Sequence record: MW286157.1
Strand: one strand, 5' to 3'
DNA: 64,000 bases
Source: Escherichia phage vB_EcoM-BECP11
The notes under the pieces were generated by a model that did no database searches, had not been told where the DNA came from, and saw nothing but the letters and a program-made list of their open reading frames with translations. Both the position numbers and the translations under genes were made by a program. Shown in pieces: positions 10,787 through 59,200 of the stretch; the first letter of the stretch is position 1, and each line of letters opens with the position of its first letter.

Positions 10787-10868
10787 CATACAAGTAATAT
10801 AAATCTATACTTATGAAAAACAGATGATTCTGGACCTTTAGAATTCCCTAAAAAATTTTCACAAAACT

Positions 10869-10898
10869 GTTTACAAGACTGTTCTTCTGTGGTACTAT
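10869..10898 (+). promoter_or_regulatory. T4-type early promoter (-35 GTTTAC, 18 nt spacer, -10 TACTAT) with A/T-rich upstream element
   Basis: gtttac 10869-10874, tggtactat 10890-10898; near-identical copy at 38598-38627. Confidence 0.65.
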
Positions 10899-10935
10899 AC
10901 AACTATCAACTACTGATACAGATTTGGAGAATAAA

Positions 10936-15160: not shown

Positions 15161-16588
15161 GTGGTAGAAATTATTCTTTCTCATCTTATATTTGATCAAG
15201 CTTATTTTTCAAAAGTTTGGCCATATATGGATTCAGAATATTTTGAAAGTGGTCCAGCTAAAAATGCATTCAAATTAATTAAATCTCATGTTAATGAGTA
15301 CCATAGCGTTCCATCTATTAATGCGTTAAATGTTGCATTAGAAAATAGTTCATTTACTGAAACAGAATATTCTGGTGTAAAAACACTTATTTCAAAACTG
15401 GCTGATTCTCCGGAAGACCACAGCTGGTTAGTAAAAGAAACAGAAAAATATGTTCAGCAAAGAGCGATGTTTAATGCTACGTCTAAAATAATCGAAATTC
15501 AAACCAATGCTGAGCTTCCTCCGGAAAAACGAAATAAGAAAATGCCGGATGTTGGTGCTATTCCTGACATCATGCGCCAAGCATTATCAATTTCATTTGA
15601 TAGCTACGTCGGTCATGATTGGATGGATGACTACGAAGCACGCTGGCTATCTTATATGAATAAAGCTCGTAAAGTTCCATTTAAACTTCGTATTTTGAAT
15701 AAAATTACAAAAGGCGGAGCTGAGACTGGAACACTGAACGTTTTAATGGCTGGCGTTAACGTTGGTAAATCATTAGGATTGTGTTCATTAGCAGCAGATT
15801 ATTTACAGCTCGGACATAATGTTCTTTACATTTCCATGGAAATGGCAGAAGAAGTCTGTGCTAAGCGTATTGACGCTAACATGCTTGATGTTTCTCTTGA
15901 TGACATTGATGATGGGCATATTTCTTACGCTGAATATAAAGGAAAAATGGAAAAATGGCGTGAGAAATCTACCCTTGGTCGTTTAATCGTTAAGCAATAT
16001 CCTACTGGTGGAGCAGACGCTAATACATTTCGATCACTTTTAAATGAATTAAAGCTCAAGAAGAATTTTGTTCCAACAATCATTATTGTCGACTATCTAG
16101 GTATTTGTAAATCTTGCCGCATCAGAGTTTATTCAGAAAATAGTTACACAACTGTTAAAGCTATTGCAGAGGAATTGCGTGCTTTGGCTGTTGAAACCGA
16201 AACTGTTCTTTGGACTGCAGCACAGGTTGGTAAACAAGCTTGGGACTCTTCTGATGTTAACATGAGTGATATCGCAGAATCTGCTGGTCTTCCAGCAACA
16301 GCTGATTTTATGCTTGCGGTTATTGAAACCGAGGAGTTAGCAGCTGCTGAACAACAGCTTATTAAGCAAATCAAATCACGATATGGTGATAAGAATAAGT
16401 GGAATAAGTTTTTGATGGGTGTTCAAAAAGGAAATCAAAAATGGGTAGAAATTGAACAAGATTCTACTCCAACTGAAGTGAACGAAGTAGCAGGTTCACA
16501 ACAGATTCAGGCTGAACAGAATCGCTATCAAAGAAATGAATCCACTCGAGCTCAGTTAGATGCTTTGGCAAATGAATTAAAATTTTAG
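15161..16588 (+). CDS. 41: replicative DNA helicase gp41 (DnaB-like)
   Basis: 475 aa, GTG start, Walker A GVNVGKS; matches recalled T4 gp41. Confidence 0.95.
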   Translation: MVEIILSHLIFDQAYFSKVWPYMDSEYFESGPAKNAFKLIKSHVNEYHSVPSINALNVALENSSFTETEYSGVKTLISKLADSPEDHSWLVKETEKYVQQRAMFNATSKIIEIQTNAELPPEKRNKKMPDVGAIPDIMRQALSISFDSYVGHDWMDDYEARWLSYMNKARKVPFKLRILNKITKGGAETGTLNVLMAGVNVGKSLGLCSLAADYLQLGHNVLYISMEMAEEVCAKRIDANMLDVSLDDIDDGHISYAEYKGKMEKWREKSTLGRLIVKQYPTGGADANTFRSLLNELKLKKNFVPTIIIVDYLGICKSCRIRVYSENSYTTVKAIAEELRALAVETETVLWTAAQVGKQAWDSSDVNMSDIAESAGLPATADFMLAVIETEELAAAEQQLIKQIKSRYGDKNKWNKFLMGVQKGNQKWVEIEQDSTPTEVNEVAGSQQIQAEQNRYQRNESTRAQLDALANELKF

Positions 16589-16624
16589 TTTACAAGCTGA
16601 CAAGACTATGGTATAGTAGTCTTG
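16588..16624 (+). promoter_or_regulatory. early promoter (-35 GTTTAC 16588-16593, -10 TATAGT 16612-16617) embedded in 8 bp stem-loop caagacta/tagtcttg
   Basis: inverted repeat 16601-16608 / 16617-16624 flanks the -10 element. Confidence 0.6.
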
Positions 16625-16646
16625 TTGGTTAAATGAGGAGATTGTT

Positions 16647-16829
16647 ATGGAATTGGTAAAAGTAGTTTTTATGGGGTGGTTTAAGAACGAAAGTATGTTT
16701 ACTAAAGAAATCACAATGATGAAAGATGACGTTCAATGGGCTACTACTCAATATGCTGAAGTTAATAAAGCATTAGTTAAAGCTTTCATTGATGACAAGA
16801 AAGTATGCGAAGTGGATTGCCGAGGATAA
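16647..16829 (+). CDS. dmd: Dmd antitoxin-like protein (inhibitor of RnlA/LsoA toxins)
   Basis: 60 aa MELVKVVFMGWFKNES...; matches my recollection of T4 Dmd, adjacent to gene 41. Confidence 0.7.
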   Translation: MELVKVVFMGWFKNESMFTKEITMMKDDVQWATTQYAEVNKALVKAFIDDKKVCEVDCRG

Positions 16830-16830
16830 T

Positions 16831-17088
16831 ATGCATATTGTTTTATTTAAACCTACTCCGTATAACGTCAGGAAAAATACTCAATTCAAAGCACTTATTG
16901 CAGATACGTGGGAATTGGTGCTAGATATTCCAGCAGAAGAAAGTCCTCCATTTGGTCGAGTGGAATTTATTAAGTTTGCTGTACGTCCTACGAAGCGACA
17001 GATTCGTCAGTGTAAAAGGTATTTTCGTAAGATCGTTAAGCTAGAGAAACAGTTTGTAACATGTGATTATGCAGAAGTTTTAAAATAA
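16831..17088 (+). CDS. 61.4-like small basic protein, 85 aa
   Basis: ATG 16831 after SD gagga, 2 nt after dmd stop; basic C-terminus RPTKRQIRQCKRYFRK. Confidence 0.5.
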   Translation: MHIVLFKPTPYNVRKNTQFKALIADTWELVLDIPAEESPPFGRVEFIKFAVRPTKRQIRQCKRYFRKIVKLEKQFVTCDYAEVLK

Positions 17089-17148
17089 CTATTTACTTTT
17101 GTTGGAAATTGATATACTATATAAACATAAACTACTGAGGAGATTATC

Positions 17149-17442
17149 ATGAAAAAATTTATTTTTGCTACAATTTTTACTTTGGCTTCTTGTGCTGCTC
17201 AGCCTGCTATGGCAGGTTATGATAAAGATTTGTGTGAATGGTCTATGACTGCAGATCAGACTGAAGTTGAAACTCAAATTGAAGCGGATATTATGAATAT
17301 CGTTGAGCGTGATCGCCCCAATATGAAAGTTGAAGTACAAAAACAGCTTAAATCAGGTGGTGTGATGCAGTATAATTATGTTCTGTATTGTGACCCTAAT
17401 TTTGATAACAAAAATATCGTAACCGAAATCACAGGTGAATAA
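17149..17442 (+). CDS. sp: Spackle-like periplasmic protein
   Basis: 97 aa with signal peptide MKKFIFATIFTLASCAAQPAMA; size and position match T4 sp (61.3). Confidence 0.65.
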   Translation: MKKFIFATIFTLASCAAQPAMAGYDKDLCEWSMTADQTEVETQIEADIMNIVERDRPNMKVEVQKQLKSGGVMQYNYVLYCDPNFDNKNIVTEITGE

Positions 17443-17443
17443 T

Positions 17444-18082
17444 ATGATTTATTATATGCACAAAAATCCACCGTTTAAATACGGTAAATTTCCTGATGCA
17501 CAATGTTATAATATAACGCCTGATGAAAATAACCGTGGATATCTTATTGGCACAATTTTTGTAATTGTTAAAGATAACGAAATCGTTGCCTGGGCAGATT
17601 TTAAAGGTACAACACATGATGTTAATCCGGTGCCTTTCACATATTACAATATAATGGATTTGGCATATGATTATAATTGGTTTAATCATGACACGTTGGC
17701 TCATATTCATATTGAAGGTGTAGGATTTGACATCTCTTATTCTAGCTACTCATTGTGTCCTATGAGTCGGGCTCATAAAGAACCTGAATATTTTTCATTT
17801 AGGAAACGTGTAAACTTTAAACGCAACACAGAGTATGTCGGTGGAATCTTTGTTAAAGATAATCGAATTATTCGTATTAATTATCCTTTGAGCGTTAGTC
17901 AAAAAGATATTGATGTTGATTTAGATTTCACTGAAAATAATATTAATCATATTGCTTCTGTGTATTTTGGTATCGATCACAAAATTGTAATATGTGGATA
18001 TGAATTACCGTTTGAAGAACAGCCTAAAGTAAAAGTTTCTATTGACGATCAAATTTTTAATGCTTTTATGAATAAAGGTTAA
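17444..18082 (+). CDS. 61.2-like protein, 212 aa
   Basis: ATG 17444 right after sp stop; C-terminal tag SIDDQIFNAFMNKG shared with next gene. Confidence 0.5.
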   Translation: MIYYMHKNPPFKYGKFPDAQCYNITPDENNRGYLIGTIFVIVKDNEIVAWADFKGTTHDVNPVPFTYYNIMDLAYDYNWFNHDTLAHIHIEGVGFDISYSSYSLCPMSRAHKEPEYFSFRKRVNFKRNTEYVGGIFVKDNRIIRINYPLSVSQKDIDVDLDFTENNINHIASVYFGIDHKIVICGYELPFEEQPKVKVSIDDQIFNAFMNKG

Positions 18083-18086
18083 TATG
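18038..18086 (+). repeat. 49 nt module, copy 1 (3' end of 61.2-like gene plus RBS and start of next gene)
   Basis: tctattgacgatcaaatttttaatgcttttatgaataaaggttaatatg; second copy at 18396-18444 with 3 mismatches. Confidence 0.8.
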
Positions 18087-18440
18087 TATAGTTCTGAATT
18101 TTCATATTTAAAAATGGAAAAAATTTCATACGATTTTATAGATGAAAAGGTTTATTACAGTTTCCATGAACCACGTTTTAATAGTGAGGTTGGGTTTATT
18201 GTAGTAAAAGACAATTTCATTTTAAAGATATATTCGGCATTAAAGGATTTTCACTACGAAAATATTAACCTAAAATTTGATAAAGAAAACGTTCGTAATT
18301 GCGCAGTAACAATTACAGGAAATAAAGGCACATGTGTTATGCTATCTGATGAAATTAATGATTTGCTAAATGATGCCGAAAAGGTTGCTATTCCATCTAT
18401 TGATGACCAAATTTTTAATGCTTTTATGAATAGAGGTTAA
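18084..18440 (+). CDS. 61.1-like protein, 118 aa
   Basis: ends with SIDDQIFNAFMNRG, same tag as upstream gene. Confidence 0.5.
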   Translation: MYSSEFSYLKMEKISYDFIDEKVYYSFHEPRFNSEVGFIVVKDNFILKIYSALKDFHYENINLKFDKENVRNCAVTITGNKGTCVMLSDEINDLLNDAEKVAIPSIDDQIFNAFMNRG

Positions 18441-18444
18441 TATG
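18396..18444 (+). repeat. 49 nt module, copy 2
   Basis: tctattgatgaccaaatttttaatgcttttatgaatagaggttaatatg. Confidence 0.8.
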
Positions 18445-18606
18445 AAAACATATAAAGAATTTATTAAAGAAGATATGGTAGCTGGAGATTCAGGTGGTAA
18501 TCCTGAAAATATCTCTACTGGAACAACGTCGGGCGCTGTAGTAAATAAAGGTCCTGAACAGATTCCTAAAAAGAAAAAAGAGGAATCTAAAGAAAAAGAA
18601 GAGTAA
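18442..18606 (+). CDS. 54 aa Lys/Glu-rich peptide
   Basis: ATG 18442 inside repeat copy 2; stop 2 nt before gene 61 ATG; low complexity C-terminus. Confidence 0.35.
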   Translation: MKTYKEFIKEDMVAGDSGGNPENISTGTTSGAVVNKGPEQIPKKKKEESKEKEE

Positions 18607-18608
18607 AA

Positions 18609-19637
18609 ATGTCATCAATACCTTGGATTGATAATGAGTTTGCGTATCGTGCATTAGCTCATTTACCTAAATTCACACAAGTAAATAATAGTTCAACTTT
18701 TAAATTACGGTTTAGATGCCCTGTTTGTGGAGATTCAAAAACCGATCAGAATAAAGCCCGTGGATGGTATTACGGTGATAATAATGAAGGAAATATTCAT
18801 TGTTATAACTGTAACTATCATGCACCAATCGGAATATATTTAAAGGAGTTTGAACCTGATTTATATCGTGAGTATATCTTTGAAATAAGAAAAGAAAAAG
18901 GTAAAAGTCGTCCAGTAGAAAAACCTAAAGAACTTCCTAAACATCCTGAGAAGAAAATAATTAAATCTCTTCCGTCATGTGTTAGATTAGATAAACTGGT
19001 GGAAGACCATCCAATTATAAAATATGTAAAAGCTCGTTGTATTCCAAAGGATAAATGGAAATATCTTTGGTTTACAACCGAATGGCCTAAATTAGTTAAT
19101 AGCATAGCACCGGGAACATACAAAAAGGAAATTTCTGAGCCTCGTCTTGTTATTCCAATTTATAATGCTAATGGAAAAGCCGAGTCGTTTCAAGGGCGTG
19201 CATTAAAGAAAGATGCTCCTCAAAAATATATCACCATCAAAGCTTATCCTGAGGCAACAAAAATATATGGAGTCGAACGAGTTAAAGATGGTGATGTATA
19301 TGTTTTAGAAGGACCTATAGATTCACTTTTTATTGAAAATGGTATAGCTATTACGGGTGGTCAATTAGACCTAGAAGTTGTTCCATTTAAAGATAGGCGT
19401 GTGTGGGTCTTAGATAATGAACCTCGTCATCCTGACACTATTAAGCGAATGACTAAATTAGTTGATGCAGGAGAAAGGGTTATGTTTTGGGATAAATCTC
19501 CCTGGAAATCAAAAGATGTTAATGATATGATTAGAAAGGAAGGTGCAACCCCTGAACAAATTATGGAATATATGAAAAATAATATTGCCCAGGGGTTGAT
19601 GGCTAAAATGCGGTTATCTAAATATGCTAAGATTTAA
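18609..19637 (+). CDS. 61: DNA primase gp61
   Basis: 342 aa; zinc ribbon CPVCGDS...CYNC; Toprim-like core; size equals T4 gp61. Confidence 0.9.
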   Translation: MSSIPWIDNEFAYRALAHLPKFTQVNNSSTFKLRFRCPVCGDSKTDQNKARGWYYGDNNEGNIHCYNCNYHAPIGIYLKEFEPDLYREYIFEIRKEKGKSRPVEKPKELPKHPEKKIIKSLPSCVRLDKLVEDHPIIKYVKARCIPKDKWKYLWFTTEWPKLVNSIAPGTYKKEISEPRLVIPIYNANGKAESFQGRALKKDAPQKYITIKAYPEATKIYGVERVKDGDVYVLEGPIDSLFIENGIAITGGQLDLEVVPFKDRRVWVLDNEPRHPDTIKRMTKLVDAGERVMFWDKSPWKSKDVNDMIRKEGATPEQIMEYMKNNIAQGLMAKMRLSKYAKI

Positions 19638-19834
19638 ATTAACCCAACTAAAGCAAATGCTAAATCTACAAATGTATCAAGAGTAACTACTGGAATATTA
19701 ACACCATGTGCAATTGCAATTGGTGATAAAATAAAGTTCCAGAGTAAAATTCCTACCATAGCAGAAATAGTAAAAGCTATACGTTTCTTATTACCTTTGA
19801 TGGCATTAACAAGTGCCATTAATTTTTGTACCAT
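19634..19834 (-). CDS. 66 aa predicted membrane protein, antisense to flanking early genes
   Basis: strong SD aaggagg 4 nt before ATG on minus strand; two hydrophobic segments; convergent with gene 61. Confidence 0.35.
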   Translation of the reverse strand: MVQKLMALVNAIKGNKKRIAFTISAMVGILLWNFILSPIAIAHGVNIPVVTLDTFVDLAFALVGLI

Positions 19835-28759: not shown

Positions 28760-29302
28760 ATGAAATTTAATTATAATCCTGAATACACACCAAATCCTGT
28801 AGATAAACCGTTTGATATGGATATAGCAAGCATGTACGGCACTCTTGTTAAACCATTAGAAATTAAGGAAACATTTATGACTGCTCGGACCATCGAAACT
28901 GGCAAAACCTACAAACTGGTTGAAACTGAAATTAAAACTGCTGAATTAAATTTGGGTTATAAAGCATTGACTAGTGTTTTTGGTGAAGGCGAGTTTGTGG
29001 TTAAAAGCTTTTCAAAAAGTAACTGGTATGATAAAAATAAAGCTTACGTGATTCGAGCACATCGCTTAGATAATGATGAAGTAATTAAAACTATAGTCTT
29101 TGAAGCAGAGCTTATCCTCTTTCAAGAATGCGATCCTACTGACCTTTTAACTCGTGCGGTAGCTATCAAGACTCCATTTATTTCGGTCTGTGGTTGGGTA
29201 ACAGACCAGTGGGTAGAAGACGGTGTTGAACTTCTGAACGTTGTTCATGCAGGTGATTTTAGTGTAGTACCTCGTAGTGCGGTGGTAGCTATTTTAAATT
29301 AA
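28760..29302 (+). CDS. hypothetical protein, 180 aa, paralogue A
   Basis: C-terminal TDQWVEDGVELLNVVHAGDFSVVP shared with ORF 29379-29876. Confidence 0.5.
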   Translation: MKFNYNPEYTPNPVDKPFDMDIASMYGTLVKPLEIKETFMTARTIETGKTYKLVETEIKTAELNLGYKALTSVFGEGEFVVKSFSKSNWYDKNKAYVIRAHRLDNDEVIKTIVFEAELILFQECDPTDLLTRAVAIKTPFISVCGWVTDQWVEDGVELLNVVHAGDFSVVPRSAVVAILN

Positions 29303-29378: not shown

Positions 29379-29876
29379 ATGATTATTAATATTGGTGAAA
29401 TTGCTCGTGTATCTGATAAATCCCGTTCTAAAGCAGCAGGAAAATTGGTAGAAGTTGTAAGCATTCAGCTTAAACATGGTGTTAAAGATGAAGATTCTGA
29501 AGTAAAAGTGCGTATCATTCCTAAAGATGGAAAGTCTAAACCTCAGTTTGGCTATGTTCGTGCGAAATTTCTTGAATCTGCGTTTTTGAAAGCTGTTCCT
29601 GCTAAAGGAATTGAAACGATTGATACTTCGCATGTAGGTGTAGACTTTAAGTGGAAACTCGGTCAGGCTATTAAGTTCGTTGCTCCTTATGAATTCGAAT
29701 TTACTGAAGATGAGGAAGGGGTTGTTCAAAAACACCGTACTCGTGCTATGTGCGCATACATTACTGATCAGTGGGTAGAAGACGGTGTTAAGCTGTACAA
29801 CGCGGTATATTTAGGAACATACAAAGTCATTCCTGAAAGTTGGATTAAACACTATAGCAAAGCTCGCTATGCATAA
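29379..29876 (+). CDS. hypothetical protein, 165 aa, paralogue B
   Basis: C-terminal TDQWVEDGVKLYNAVYLGTYKVIP; identical 21 nt core cagtgggtagaagacggtgtt at 29207 and 29769. Confidence 0.5.
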   Translation: MIINIGEIARVSDKSRSKAAGKLVEVVSIQLKHGVKDEDSEVKVRIIPKDGKSKPQFGYVRAKFLESAFLKAVPAKGIETIDTSHVGVDFKWKLGQAIKFVAPYEFEFTEDEEGVVQKHRTRAMCAYITDQWVEDGVKLYNAVYLGTYKVIPESWIKHYSKARYA

Positions 29877-29906
29877 AGTTTAAAAATTTTTCATAAAACT
29901 ATATAC

Positions 29907-29949
29907 ATCAGTAGTTGATTATGGTACTATATCAATATCAACTACTGAT
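29907..29949 (+). repeat. 13 bp perfect inverted repeat atcagtagttgat / atcaactactgat enclosing promoter -10 TACTAT
   Basis: arms at 29907-29919 and 29937-29949; -10 at 29925-29930. Confidence 0.8.
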
Positions 29950-29973
29950 ACAGAAAATAACTTGGAGAATAAA

Positions 29974-37582: not shown

Positions 37583-38072
37583 TTTGACTAGTGAAATGAA
37601 GGTCAAAATTGCTGATACTGCGAGATACTCTTTAAAACAAAATCCAAACCAGGATAAGGCTGAGGTCATCGAAAGATGTCGTATCGCAGTGTATGCTGAG
37701 TATGTTGTAGCAGATTGGTTAAGTGGGTATGTTAACAAAGGTCAAGAAGACGTCGATGATCCGTATACATATGCATGGGATGTTTTAGCACATCCAAAAT
37801 ACTGCGGGCTTCGGGTAGAAGTTAAAACACACCAAACTGACTCTCGATGGATTTCAGTAACGACAGGACACAGCGGAGAGTATCCATACGGTTCTGGAAT
37901 AAATCTAGGGCCCATTCTAAATCATCAAGTCGCTGACTGTATAATTATATTCAACACTAAAGAAATTCATCCAGGTGTCATCCAGTACACTCCGAAGTTC
38001 ATCGGTGACAGAGAAGACCTTCGTAAGGTTGTAAGAAAAAGCAACTACAACGGATGGTATCTTTCCATTTAA
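37515..38072 (+). CDS. denB: endonuclease IV DenB
   Basis: 185 aa at the T4 denB position next to rIIB. Confidence 0.7.
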   Translation: MQKTNPGLQRLFQIPTFTLSNSDLTSEMKVKIADTARYSLKQNPNQDKAEVIERCRIAVYAEYVVADWLSGYVNKGQEDVDDPYTYAWDVLAHPKYCGLRVEVKTHQTDSRWISVTTGHSGEYPYGSGINLGPILNHQVADCIIIFNTKEIHPGVIQYTPKFIGDREDLRKVVRKSNYNGWYLSI

Positions 38073-38091
38073 AAAATTTTTTCACAAAACG

Positions 38092-38121
38092 GTTTACATA
38101 CCACAAGGACCGTGGTACTAT
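38092..38121 (+). promoter_or_regulatory. early promoter (-35 GTTTAC, -10 TACTAT)
   Basis: gtttac 38092-38097, tactat 38116-38121. Confidence 0.6.
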
Positions 38122-38149
38122 TACCCTATCAACTACGGAGGAGCGGAAA

Positions 38150-38492: not shown

Positions 38493-38591
38493 ATGAAAAT
38501 TTTGAATTCTGTACTTATTGCTTGCGCGTGGTGGGTTGCACAGGTTTCAGCGGTAGTAGTTGGTATTCACATTTATTACGAATATTTTTAA
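38493..38591 (+). CDS. 32 aa hydrophobic micro-protein
   Basis: SD aatgaggtt then ATG; single predicted TM helix. Confidence 0.3.
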   Translation: MKILNSVLIACAWWVAQVSAVVVGIHIYYEYF

Positions 38592-38597
38592 AAAGTT

Positions 38598-38627
38598 GTT
38601 TACAAGACTGTTCTTCCGTGGTACTAT
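38598..38627 (+). promoter_or_regulatory. early promoter, near-identical copy of the one at 10869-10898
   Basis: gtttacaagactgttcttccgtggtactat differs by one base from 10869-10898. Confidence 0.65.
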
Positions 38628-38655
38628 TACCCTATCAACTACGGAGGAACAGAAA

Positions 38656-41707: not shown

Positions 41708-41733
41708 ATTTCAAAAATTTTTTTCACAAAACG

Positions 41734-41763
41734 GTTTACAACCAAAGCATACTGTGGTACTAT
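41734..41763 (+). promoter_or_regulatory. early promoter (-35 GTTTAC, -10 TACTAT) with shared leader caactatcaactactgatacag
   Basis: gtttac 41734-41739, tactat 41758-41763; leader identical to 10899-10919. Confidence 0.65.
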
Positions 41764-41804
41764 ACAACTATCAACTACTGATACAGAATTACGGAGATTA
41801 GAAA

Positions 41805-58402: not shown

Positions 58403-58426
58403 ATTTCAAAAATTTTTCATAAAACG

Positions 58427-58456
58427 GTTTACATCCTTGTCCTTCCATGGTACTAT
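58427..58456 (+). promoter_or_regulatory. early promoter (-35 GTTTAC, -10 TACTAT)
   Basis: gtttac 58427-58432, tactat 58451-58456. Confidence 0.6.
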
Positions 58457-58499
58457 ACAACTATCGGCAATACTGCTGATAATTAAAGAGGAAAATAAT

Positions 58500-58775: not shown

Positions 58776-59141
58776 ATGTATATTGGCAAAAAGTATGAGC
58801 TTGTTCCAAGACTTATTGATACATTTATTAATTATCGCCCACGTTCTAATTCATCAATAGTTAAAATTATTCAAGAAAATGGTGGATGGTTTGAAGTTAA
58901 AGAAGCTTTCTTTGTTGATGGATTTAGAGTAATAAAACACATTGAATGCGCAAATGGAAAGCATTTTTACTTTAACGTTTGTGAAGACGAATTTCATTGT
59001 TTCCGCGAATATAAAGAACCTACTTCTGAAGAGGATGAAGTTAAAGACAAGGTTTCTGGCGTAACAAAAATTCACTGCATTGTTGACGAAAATAATGTAG
59101 ATGAAATCATTGAACTTTTGCGAAAAACTTTCAAAAAGTAG
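58776..59141 (+). CDS. hypothetical protein, 121 aa
   Basis: SD gaggaaaacg then ATG. Confidence 0.5.
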   Translation: MYIGKKYELVPRLIDTFINYRPRSNSSIVKIIQENGGWFEVKEAFFVDGFRVIKHIECANGKHFYFNVCEDEFHCFREYKEPTSEEDEVKDKVSGVTKIHCIVDENNVDEIIELLRKTFKK

Positions 59142-59170
59142 TTTACAACAGGGTAGTAGTGTGATACTAT
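59141..59170 (+). promoter_or_regulatory. early promoter (-35 GTTTAC, -10 TACTAT)
   Basis: gtttac 59141-59146, tactat 59165-59170. Confidence 0.6.
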
Positions 59171-59200
59171 TACCCTATCAAAACTAATGGAGAAAAGAAA

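Follow-up and report, generated by a model that had tools for sequence, protein, structure and literature searches.

Why do two adjacent genes of a T4-like phage end in nearly the same 49 nucleotides (nt)? The question arises in Escherichia phage vB_EcoM-BECP11 (sequence record MW286157.1), of which we analyzed a stretch of 64,000 nt, called the window here. An earlier sequence-only reading had found a duplicated segment at the 3′ ends of genes of 212 and 118 amino acids (aa). It held the bodies of both proteins to be dissimilar, and proposed a portable C-terminal module or a recombination footprint, possibly a shared partner-binding or degradation tag. We identify the 212-aa gene as AdfA (anti-DarT factor A, T4 gp61.2) and the 118-aa gene as an old tandem single-unit paralogue of the AdfA C-terminal half. 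The main explanation is ordinary: the motif that tandem paralogues of a known anti-defence family conserve best recurs at both gene ends, where it overlaps the start of the following gene.

The 49-nt repeat at two gene ends

A direct-repeat search found one 49-nt repeat, 18038–18086 versus 18396–18444, with 46 of 49 positions identical (94%) and 358 nt from start to start. Each copy encodes SIDDQIFNAFMN[K/R]G, followed by TAA, T and ATG. Two mismatches, 18046/18404 (C/T) and 18049/18407 (T/C), are synonymous changes in Asp codons, and the third, 18075/18433 (A/G), exchanges Lys and Arg. The last two codons contain AAAGG in copy 1 and AGAGG in copy 2, placed 5 nt 5′ of the next ATG. Our analysis hence confirms a duplicated segment with three mismatches, the sizes and positions of both genes, and the common ribosome-binding site and ATG behind the tail; the common peptide, in contrast, measures 14 aa and not the 16 aa given earlier.

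We scanned the 64-kb window with a back-translated DDQIFNAFM pattern, allowing up to three mismatches, and obtained exactly two sites, compared with 0.00 expected from 100 shuffles. Among the direct repeats of at least 40 nt in the window, the 49-nt repeat had the highest identity, the rest being early-promoter and terminator families and tail-fibre repeats. Moreover, it recurs in 157 phage records and is therefore no assembly artefact. The repeat is genuine and far exceeds what chance would yield.

Both genes belong to the AdfA family

The 212-aa protein matched the Pfam family PF23813 (AdfA) over its full length (E=3.2e-136, 451.9 bits). The 118-aa protein reached 34.1 bits with the same profile (gathering score 27), residues 22–118 aligning to profile positions 113–211, and matched phrog_4122 with E=6.7e-73. 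Within PHROGs, phrog_3781 and phrog_4122 showed reciprocal cross-matches, and the homologues retrieved in protein searches with both proteins have a precomputed PF23813 assignment. BLASTP aligned 106 residues of the 118-aa and 212-aa proteins at 37% identity (E=6e-11), with much of the score coming from the tail. When the last 14 residues were removed, hhalign, run on small alignments of each subfamily, still matched the 118-aa family to the AdfA C-terminal half (E=7e-4, 39 collinear columns), centred on the motif G-x-I-x-VKDN-x-I.

AlphaFold2 (AF2) models of both proteins were of moderate quality, with a predicted local distance difference test score (pLDDT) of 68.8 for AdfA and 72.1 for the 118-aa protein. 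They display one unit with the element order β hairpin with its turn at VKDN, third strand, helix. It occurs once in the 118-aa protein (strands 34–42, 45–51 and 56–64, helix 67–78) and twice in AdfA, i.e., in the N-terminal half (strands 38–43, 46–51 and 57–64, helix 67–78) and in the C-terminal half (strands 129–138, 141–148 and 153–161, helix 164–175). Aligned with each other by hhalign, the two AdfA halves shared just nine columns round VKDN (E=0.005). From the predicted order of secondary structure elements only, AdfA would appear to consist of two similar β-sheet-plus-helix units, which suggests an internal duplication. This two-unit architecture of about 210 aa is present in the 212-aa gene and not in the 118-aa gene; with its single unit and the tail, the latter is a short paralogue rather than an AdfA orthologue.

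In a Foldseek search against viral models (BFVD), the AdfA model found at E≤0.001 only itself, truncated AdfA, the 118-aa type (E=3e-4) and a 145-aa type (E=8e-4); the top BFVD matches of the 118-aa model were the same set. The body of the 145-aa subfamily without its tail gave E≥0.08 in hhalign with AdfA or the 118-aa family, so that only Foldseek links it to them (E=8e-4 and 0.011). The notion of dissimilar gene bodies was hence not upheld, as Pfam, BLASTP, tail-less hhalign and Foldseek all connect them. The earlier reading had suggested alignment with homologues from other T4-like phages as a check and had named a paralogue family similar over its whole length as the outcome that would refute it; such a family is largely what we see, albeit with only faint resemblance beyond the tail.

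The known target of AdfA is DarT1, an ADP-ribosyltransferase that acts as the toxin in DarTG1 defence, and residue 164 decides whether AdfA binds it, being Arg in RB69 and His in neutralising alleles (PMC11257639). In the window AdfA, His169 (...NNINHIAS...) aligns with RB69 residue 164, i.e., the protein is of the DarT1-neutralising allele type. The corresponding residue of the 118-aa protein is Asn (...ENVRNCAV...), not His.

Alleles of adfA are mosaic. Residues 1 to about 60 of the window protein (17444–17640) are RB69-like (Mosigvirus), T4 and teqsoen represent another N-terminal class, and the C-terminal halves of window and T4 AdfA are much more alike than their N-terminal parts. This pattern suggests that exchange may have occurred within the adfA gene too. 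At about 17705–17716, moreover, the window adfA has a 6-nt tandem duplication (CATATT CATATT) resulting in ...AHIHIEGVG..., where AR1, Sf21, T4 and RB69 have ...AHIEGVG...; because of it the window AdfA has 212 aa and not 210.

The tail peptide is invariant and confined to one locus

We compared loci from AR1, T4, T2, Sf21, teqsoen, TB37, fFiEco06, VEc20, RB69, SQ17, VR25, DK-13 and JS98 and from viral and metagenome contigs. All proteins encoded directly after sp (spackle) in these loci terminate in [S/A/T/D][I/V/T]DDQIFNAFM[N/K][R/K][G/D]. Carriers of the tail are AdfA with 208–216 aa (Tequatrovirus, Mosigvirus), the 145-aa subfamily, phrog_8539 (Dhakavirus, Gaprivervirus), and a subfamily of 117–125 aa (Tequatrovirus, Gaprivervirus and more distant T4-like contigs). 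The tail spans at least four Tevenvirinae genera, with its locus just 3′ of spackle; the slot lies downstream of sp and upstream of 61.1 and gene 61 in the window, AR1, T4, T2, Sf21, VR25, DK-13, RB69, JS98, SQ17 and metagenome contigs.

Forty-five tails comprised 20 distinct 42-nt sequences. Their nine core codons (DDQIFNAFM) showed zero amino acid changes and seven of the eight degenerate codons varied synonymously, we therefore conclude that purifying selection acts on the peptide and not on the DNA. The core was also unchanged in the divergent members P0026 and P0029 (P0029: ...IGEIILNRDGSIAKI...), the bodies of which are far more diverged. A Shine-Dalgarno-like AAAGG within the adfA Lys-Gly codons, with a 5-nt spacer, is a layout common to all tails except one. 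Contig L032 retains the core peptide unchanged although the gene that follows has a Shine-Dalgarno sequence of its own behind the stop codon, and overlap with a ribosome-binding site is therefore not the whole reason for its conservation.

Both proteins were modeled by AF2 with the tail as a separate helix, residues 106–115 in the 118-aa protein and 200–209 in AdfA, each following a stretch of pLDDT<50. Among family members, this linker differs both in length and in sequence. It is plausible that the tail is a common partner-binding element.

We also scanned further collections for exact matches to the back-translated pattern. It matched 16 stretches in IMG/VR and 12 in a metagenome collection (28 in total), whereas 185,579 bacterial and archaeal genomes (one per species) contained no match. 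All matches with an extractable reading frame belonged to this T4-like phage locus, and the remainder were short pieces of these genes. Among 1.84 billion representative proteins, a HMMER profile search returned ten, all T4-like, with tail-only matches falling below threshold. A 41-aa query of a 5.8-billion-protein index found only three 33-aa fragments of the same gene and is uninformative on the tail in other proteins. The AdfA family is narrow, and the tail is a signature of this family confined to this locus. A portable C-terminal module, as proposed earlier, is at odds with a tail found solely in the AdfA family at this position.

Some phages, e.g., FL12, have only a 33-aa open reading frame (ORF) identical to the C-terminal 33 residues of the 118-aa protein (L041, 8740–8841; P0030–P0032), which suggests a disrupted 118-aa gene.

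Gene presence and absence at the repeat

Junctions were counted in the phage collection with 201-nt junction queries at a coverage of at least 80%. The adfA-118 junction was found in 157 records, the adfA-61.1 junction in 233, and the T2-type sp-118 junction in 141. T4 has adfA directly followed by 61.1, and its tail and junction are nucleotide-identical to copy 2 of the window. Phage teqsoen has a T4-type adfA allele (94.7% nt identity to T4) followed by the 118-aa gene, with a tail that differs from T4 only at the Lys/Arg codon. Accordingly, adfA ended in AAAGGT in 8/9 Tequatrovirus loci with the 118-aa gene next and in AGAGGT, the copy-2 form, in 4/4 adfA-only Tequatrovirus loci. Presence and absence are equally precise in Gaprivervirus, where VR25 has a 145-aa and a 119-aa gene and VR26 the 145-aa gene only. 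T2-type phages (T2, fFiEco06, VEc20) have only the 118-aa gene and a common junction, where sp precedes 15 nt, TTAGAGGTTAGTATG, that resemble the tail end with its ribosome-binding site. Insertions and deletions in this slot thus break at the repeat. A simple deletion at microhomology shared by the sp end and the adfA tail does not exactly account for the T2-type junction, which is one base off the product predicted for it.

A single crossover between the two copies would remove exactly 358 nt and thereby join a complete adfA to 61.1, as in T4. Singer et al. (1982) reportedly found that homologous recombination in T4 needs about 50 bp to be efficient. Genes in this region are amplified and deleted by T4 via 6–10-bp homologies (PMC9391042), so that the 49-nt repeat is an ample substrate.

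Two observations at single loci are added here. In phage 04086 (L026, 2501–3358), a 307-aa ORF with ambiguous residues contains three tandem partial copies of the C-terminal part of the 145-aa gene, and the joints between the copies adjoin or fall inside the tail; this ORF reflects either genuine amplification at the repeat or misassembly of mixed strains. In T2 (L003, 1194–1472), sp ends in ...NNHR* as opposed to ...NIIAEVVGE*, with one extra A compared with T4 and the window, i.e., either a frameshift of the last nine codons or a sequencing error.

Silent-site signs of a probable episodic gene conversion

In the window, 10/12 identical residues in the tail shared their codon, compared with 6/24 in the body (Fisher P=0.0013). 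Set against the codon usage of the window, 11/13 tail codons matched where 7.4/13 were expected (P=0.029); apart from the two Asp codons, the tail uses the codon that is most used for the respective residue in the window. All Tequatrovirus loci with both genes (window, AR1, Sf21, teqsoen, TB37, L036, L037, L044) showed 1–3 differences in 49 positions between the two tails of one genome. Between genera, tails differed at 5–10 sites, even though the 118/119-aa orthologues (about 47% identical) are closer to each other than the paralogues are. In Gaprivervirus DK-13 the two tails differ at only two coding sites and form a reciprocal patchwork of the VR25 145-type and 119-type states. Moreover, the Asp codon variants GAC and GAT are spread across copy 1 and copy 2 among genomes. 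From these few informative sites, we infer that gene conversion has probably acted episodically on top of strong selection and codon bias.

Gene order and further features of the window

The window is from a Tequatrovirus (T4-like), and 1.6 kb at the repeat are 98% identical to AR1, ESh31 and wV7. The gene order is helicase gene 41, dmd, 61.4, sp, 212-aa gene, 118-aa gene, 61.1 and primase gene 61 (Table 1). The sp terminus, GGTGAATAATATG, makes the identical stop-T-ATG junction into adfA. As read from the gene ends, this suggests that translation may be coupled along the string sp-adfA-118-61.1.

Table 1. Positions of the repeat copies, the genes around them and a dispersed repeat family in the window
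Feature	Position	Strand	Description
Early-promoter-like repeats	10849–10922, 29881–29954, 38072–38145, 38578–38651, 41714–41787, 58407–58480, 59124–59181		
Helicase gene 41	15161–16588		
sp (spackle)	17149–17442	+	Upstream neighbour of the slot; Pfam T4_Spackle E=8.7e-45; annotated sp in AR1, T4, T2
adfA (T4 gene 61.2)	17444–18082	+	212 aa; Pfam PF23813 full length, phrog_3781
Repeat copy 1	18038–18086	+	Final 14 adfA codons (SIDDQIFNAFMNKG), TAA, T and ATG of the 118-aa gene
Putative initiation region of the 118-aa gene	18074–18086	+	AAAGGT TAA T ATG, within copy 1; basis: sequence
118-aa gene	18084–18440	+	Single-domain AdfA paralogue (RB32ORF033c / phrog_4122 type)
Repeat copy 2	18396–18444	+	Final 14 codons of the 118-aa gene (SIDDQIFNAFMNRG), TAA, T and ATG of 61.1
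Putative initiation region of 61.1	18432–18444	+	AGAGGT TAA T ATG, within copy 2; basis: sequence
61.1	18442–18606	+	54 aa; downstream neighbour of the slot; phrog_1823 and annotations
Primase gene 61	18609–19637		

The product of 61.1 corresponds to the C-terminal third of a 154–155-aa protein in Mosigvirus SQ17 and a distant T4-like contig (L025, 2370–2837; L032, 4613–5077), matching phrog_2086 positions 109–154 of 156; T4-type 61.1 looks like a shortened version of this longer gene. Elsewhere in the window, two neighbouring ORFs of 180 aa (28760–29302) and 165 aa (29379–29876) each carry, close to the 3′ end, one copy of a 53-nt direct repeat (29201–29253 and 29763–29815, 74% identical) and may be a second tandem paralogue pair. 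The early-promoter-like repeats form a family of 58–74 nt, GTTTACA ... GGTACTATA, resembling T4 early promoters. Hairpins with GGGCTTCGGCCC are a separate family and resemble terminators (1098, 5808, 36987, 37214).

Discussion

Taken together, we give a probability of roughly 0.78 to an explanation in which tandem AdfA paralogues share a selected tail that overlaps a ribosome-binding site, uses preferred codons, undergoes occasional conversion, and serves both as recombination joint and as docking tail. The neighbourhood of dmd, tifA (61.4) and adfA (61.2) is a likely anti-toxin island, and the other genes there are candidate anti-toxins (PMC9391042). The AdfA family sits in this T-even island, which is flanked by helicase gene 41 and primase gene 61. 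Both of its members in the window end in a variable, poorly predicted linker and an invariant predicted helix, DDQIFNAFM, with N/K-R/K-G/D behind it. Four forces would keep the two copies nearly identical. Very strong purifying selection on the peptide and the preferred codons of the phage are directly visible in the counts; judging by the sequence, the final two codons together with the stop and T-ATG would also provide the ribosome-binding site and start of the next gene; and the excess of silent-site identity and the patchwork point to occasional gene conversion between adjacent copies.

The fast-evolving bodies, including residue 164, would set the target specificity and evolve with the toxin targets, and the invariant tail helix on its linker would bind something that does not vary. 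By analogy with the toxin-neutralising C-terminal segments of type II antitoxins, the most economical partner would be a conserved DarT-type toxin surface; failing that, the tail might bind some conserved component of phage or host. On this view, the 118-aa gene would encode a further anti-toxin factor, of different specificity, which fits the suggestion that AdfA variants neutralise different DarT homologues (PMC11257639). One may go further and view the AdfA family as a modular counter-defence kit, with the tail as a "warhead" or anchor in a DarT-type toxin site or a phage or host hub, with interchangeable bodies, with the repeat as a joint for adding, dropping or swapping these bodies, and with the 118-aa protein as a stand-alone factor; we consider this extension speculative and unlikely.

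Several results weigh against the explanation that we prefer. Similarity outside the tail is weak (39 columns), and the link to the 145-aa subfamily lacks sequence significance and depends on Foldseek with mediocre models (pLDDT 69–72). The tail itself was predicted with a pLDDT of only about 50–66, and its hydrophobic moment as a helix was not above that of shuffles (34% reach it), hence we do not claim amphipathicity. The signal for conversion comes from about 12 silent sites, and with preferred codons in the tail P is only 0.029. Paralogue tails in VR25 and in L040 have 7–9 differences and are as diverged as tails from different genera, so that homogenisation is at most episodic. The junction data are compatible with loss or with gain of the 118-aa gene. 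Finally, T4 without adfA residues 65–196 shows no phenotype (PMC11257639), which makes even a role of AdfA in T4 less certain. This published deletion (L002, 4133–4759) retains residues 1–64 and 197–208, the latter exactly DDQIFNAFMNRG. The deletion allele still encodes the first hairpin and the invariant tail, and with the N-terminal 64 residues and the tail retained, the null phenotype may therefore not be clean.

Could selection and codon bias alone, i.e., an invariant peptide, the ribosome-binding site overlap and preferred codons, produce the repeat without conversion and without a special role in recombination? The modest excess over preferred codons (7.4/13 matches expected with all but the two Asp codons preferred, P only 0.029) and the 7–9 differences in VR25 and L040 speak for it. 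It leaves unexplained why identical residues share codons so much less often in the body (6/24) than in the tail (10/12), the DK-13 patchwork, the shuffling of Asp codon variants between copies 1 and 2 among genomes, and indel boundaries that fall at the repeat in two genera; we regard it as quite improbable. A mobile 49-nt cassette grafted onto genes of independent origin would account for the sharp fall of conservation where the tail begins and for the 145-aa subfamily, which has no significant sequence similarity once its tail is removed. With Pfam, PHROG, hhalign and Foldseek all connecting the bodies, and with the tail at this locus only (28 viral and metagenome stretches, all here where readable, and 0 in 185,579 bacterial and archaeal genomes), this is a very improbable origin.

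We give even less credit to the idea that the nucleic acid rather than the peptide is conserved, be it as RNA structure, as target site of a regulator or nuclease, or as a translational-coupling element. The last 13 nt are indeed the initiation region of the next gene, and in 118-only phages the 15-nt tail-end-like TTAGAGGTTAGTATG lies between sp and the 118-aa gene. This is outweighed by synonymous variation in 7/8 degenerate core codons with no amino acid change and by L032, where the tail is set apart from the Shine-Dalgarno sequence of the next gene with the peptide unchanged. RNA folding of both copies with their flanks was no better than that of shuffles (z=0.42 and 0.12), which led us to reject an RNA element. 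In 16500–19800, promoter-like sites were not above shuffles, with none in the repeat, and terminator-like sites were not found.

The tandem-paralogue explanation also settles what may be kept of the functional proposals made earlier. A recombination footprint is supported in part, i.e., by indels that break at the repeat, by the greater likeness of the tail at silent sites and by the DK-13 patchwork; the repeat itself, however, stems mainly from common descent. A degradation tag found no support. By sequence, the tail has a polar or charged terminus, N-[KR]-[GD], and would thus not resemble C-terminal degrons of the ssrA type, e.g., the non-polar ...LAA recognized by ClpXP, ClpAP or Lon. AdfA(R164H) still binds DarT1 in the two-hybrid assay when T18 is fused to its C-terminus (pUT18; PMC11257639), so that this binding does not require the C-terminus to be free.

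For genome annotation the case is otherwise ordinary, two paralogues with a common most-conserved motif. It nevertheless reveals an uncharacterised short AdfA paralogue in about 300 sequenced T-even-type phages. These include T2, which was counted as naturally lacking an adfA homologue (PMC11257639). The invariant tail of 9–12 residues is the obvious first mutagenesis target for how AdfA blocks DarT. Moreover, the locus illustrates how anti-toxin islands diversify in nature, by tandem duplication, body divergence, and gain, loss or homogenisation via a conserved gene end. Indications that genes are homogenised and lost through the repeat are a modest but concrete addition.

Comparison with known systems

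With AdfA (T4 gp61.2, RB69 ORF034), the 212-aa gene shares the full-length Pfam match, the place after sp and the His at the DarT1-deciding residue. The 118-aa protein resembles AdfA in its C-terminal unit, in the G-x-I-x-VKDN-x-I hairpin motif and in the tail, and differs in being half the size, in covering profile positions 113–211 only and in the Asn at the residue-164 position. The 145-aa subfamily (JS98 orf30, VR25 gp038; phrog_8539; Dhakavirus, Gaprivervirus) is alike in its slot after sp, its tail and the stop-T-ATG junction, and in Gaprivervirus it is often followed by a 117–122-aa paralogue. Its body, in contrast, resembles neither AdfA nor the 118-aa protein significantly in sequence once the tail is removed.

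In type II antitoxins (Phd, CcdA, MazE), a flexible C-terminal segment folds into a helix on the toxin. The tail likewise sits on a separate body, an analogy that is functional only, and we do not claim membership; AdfA and the 118-aa protein differ in having no DNA-binding domain and no operon with a toxin. The tails that bind the gp45 sliding clamp (T4 gp43, gp33, gp55) are similar in that different proteins carry a short hydrophobic C-terminal motif for one partner, and the genes described here lie among replication genes. However, their motif, [ST]LDFL[FL], differs from SIDDQIFNAFMNRG. In the window, gp43 ends in ASLDFLFG and gp33 in TLDFLL, and as SIDDQIFNAFMNRG does not fit, a clamp-binding tail was rejected.

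Two systems resemble the repeat as a recombination joint. The "mobile regulatory cassettes" of T4-type phages, reportedly described by Arbiol et al. in 2010, consist of a promoter and stem-loop. They are likewise gene-boundary repeats that mediate gain and loss of small accessory genes; the 49-nt repeat differs in being without promoter or stem-loop. We rejected such a cassette, since the repeat holds no promoter- or terminator-like site, none is enriched in 16500–19800, and the true early-promoter repeats lie elsewhere (D1, D2). Short-homology amplification and deletion in T4, as in the dmd-tifA locus (PMC9391042), is alike in its repeats at gene boundaries, in the gain and loss of small accessory genes and in the neighbourhood, which is the same. 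The window repeat differs from it in that its 49 nt are coding and under selection at the protein level.

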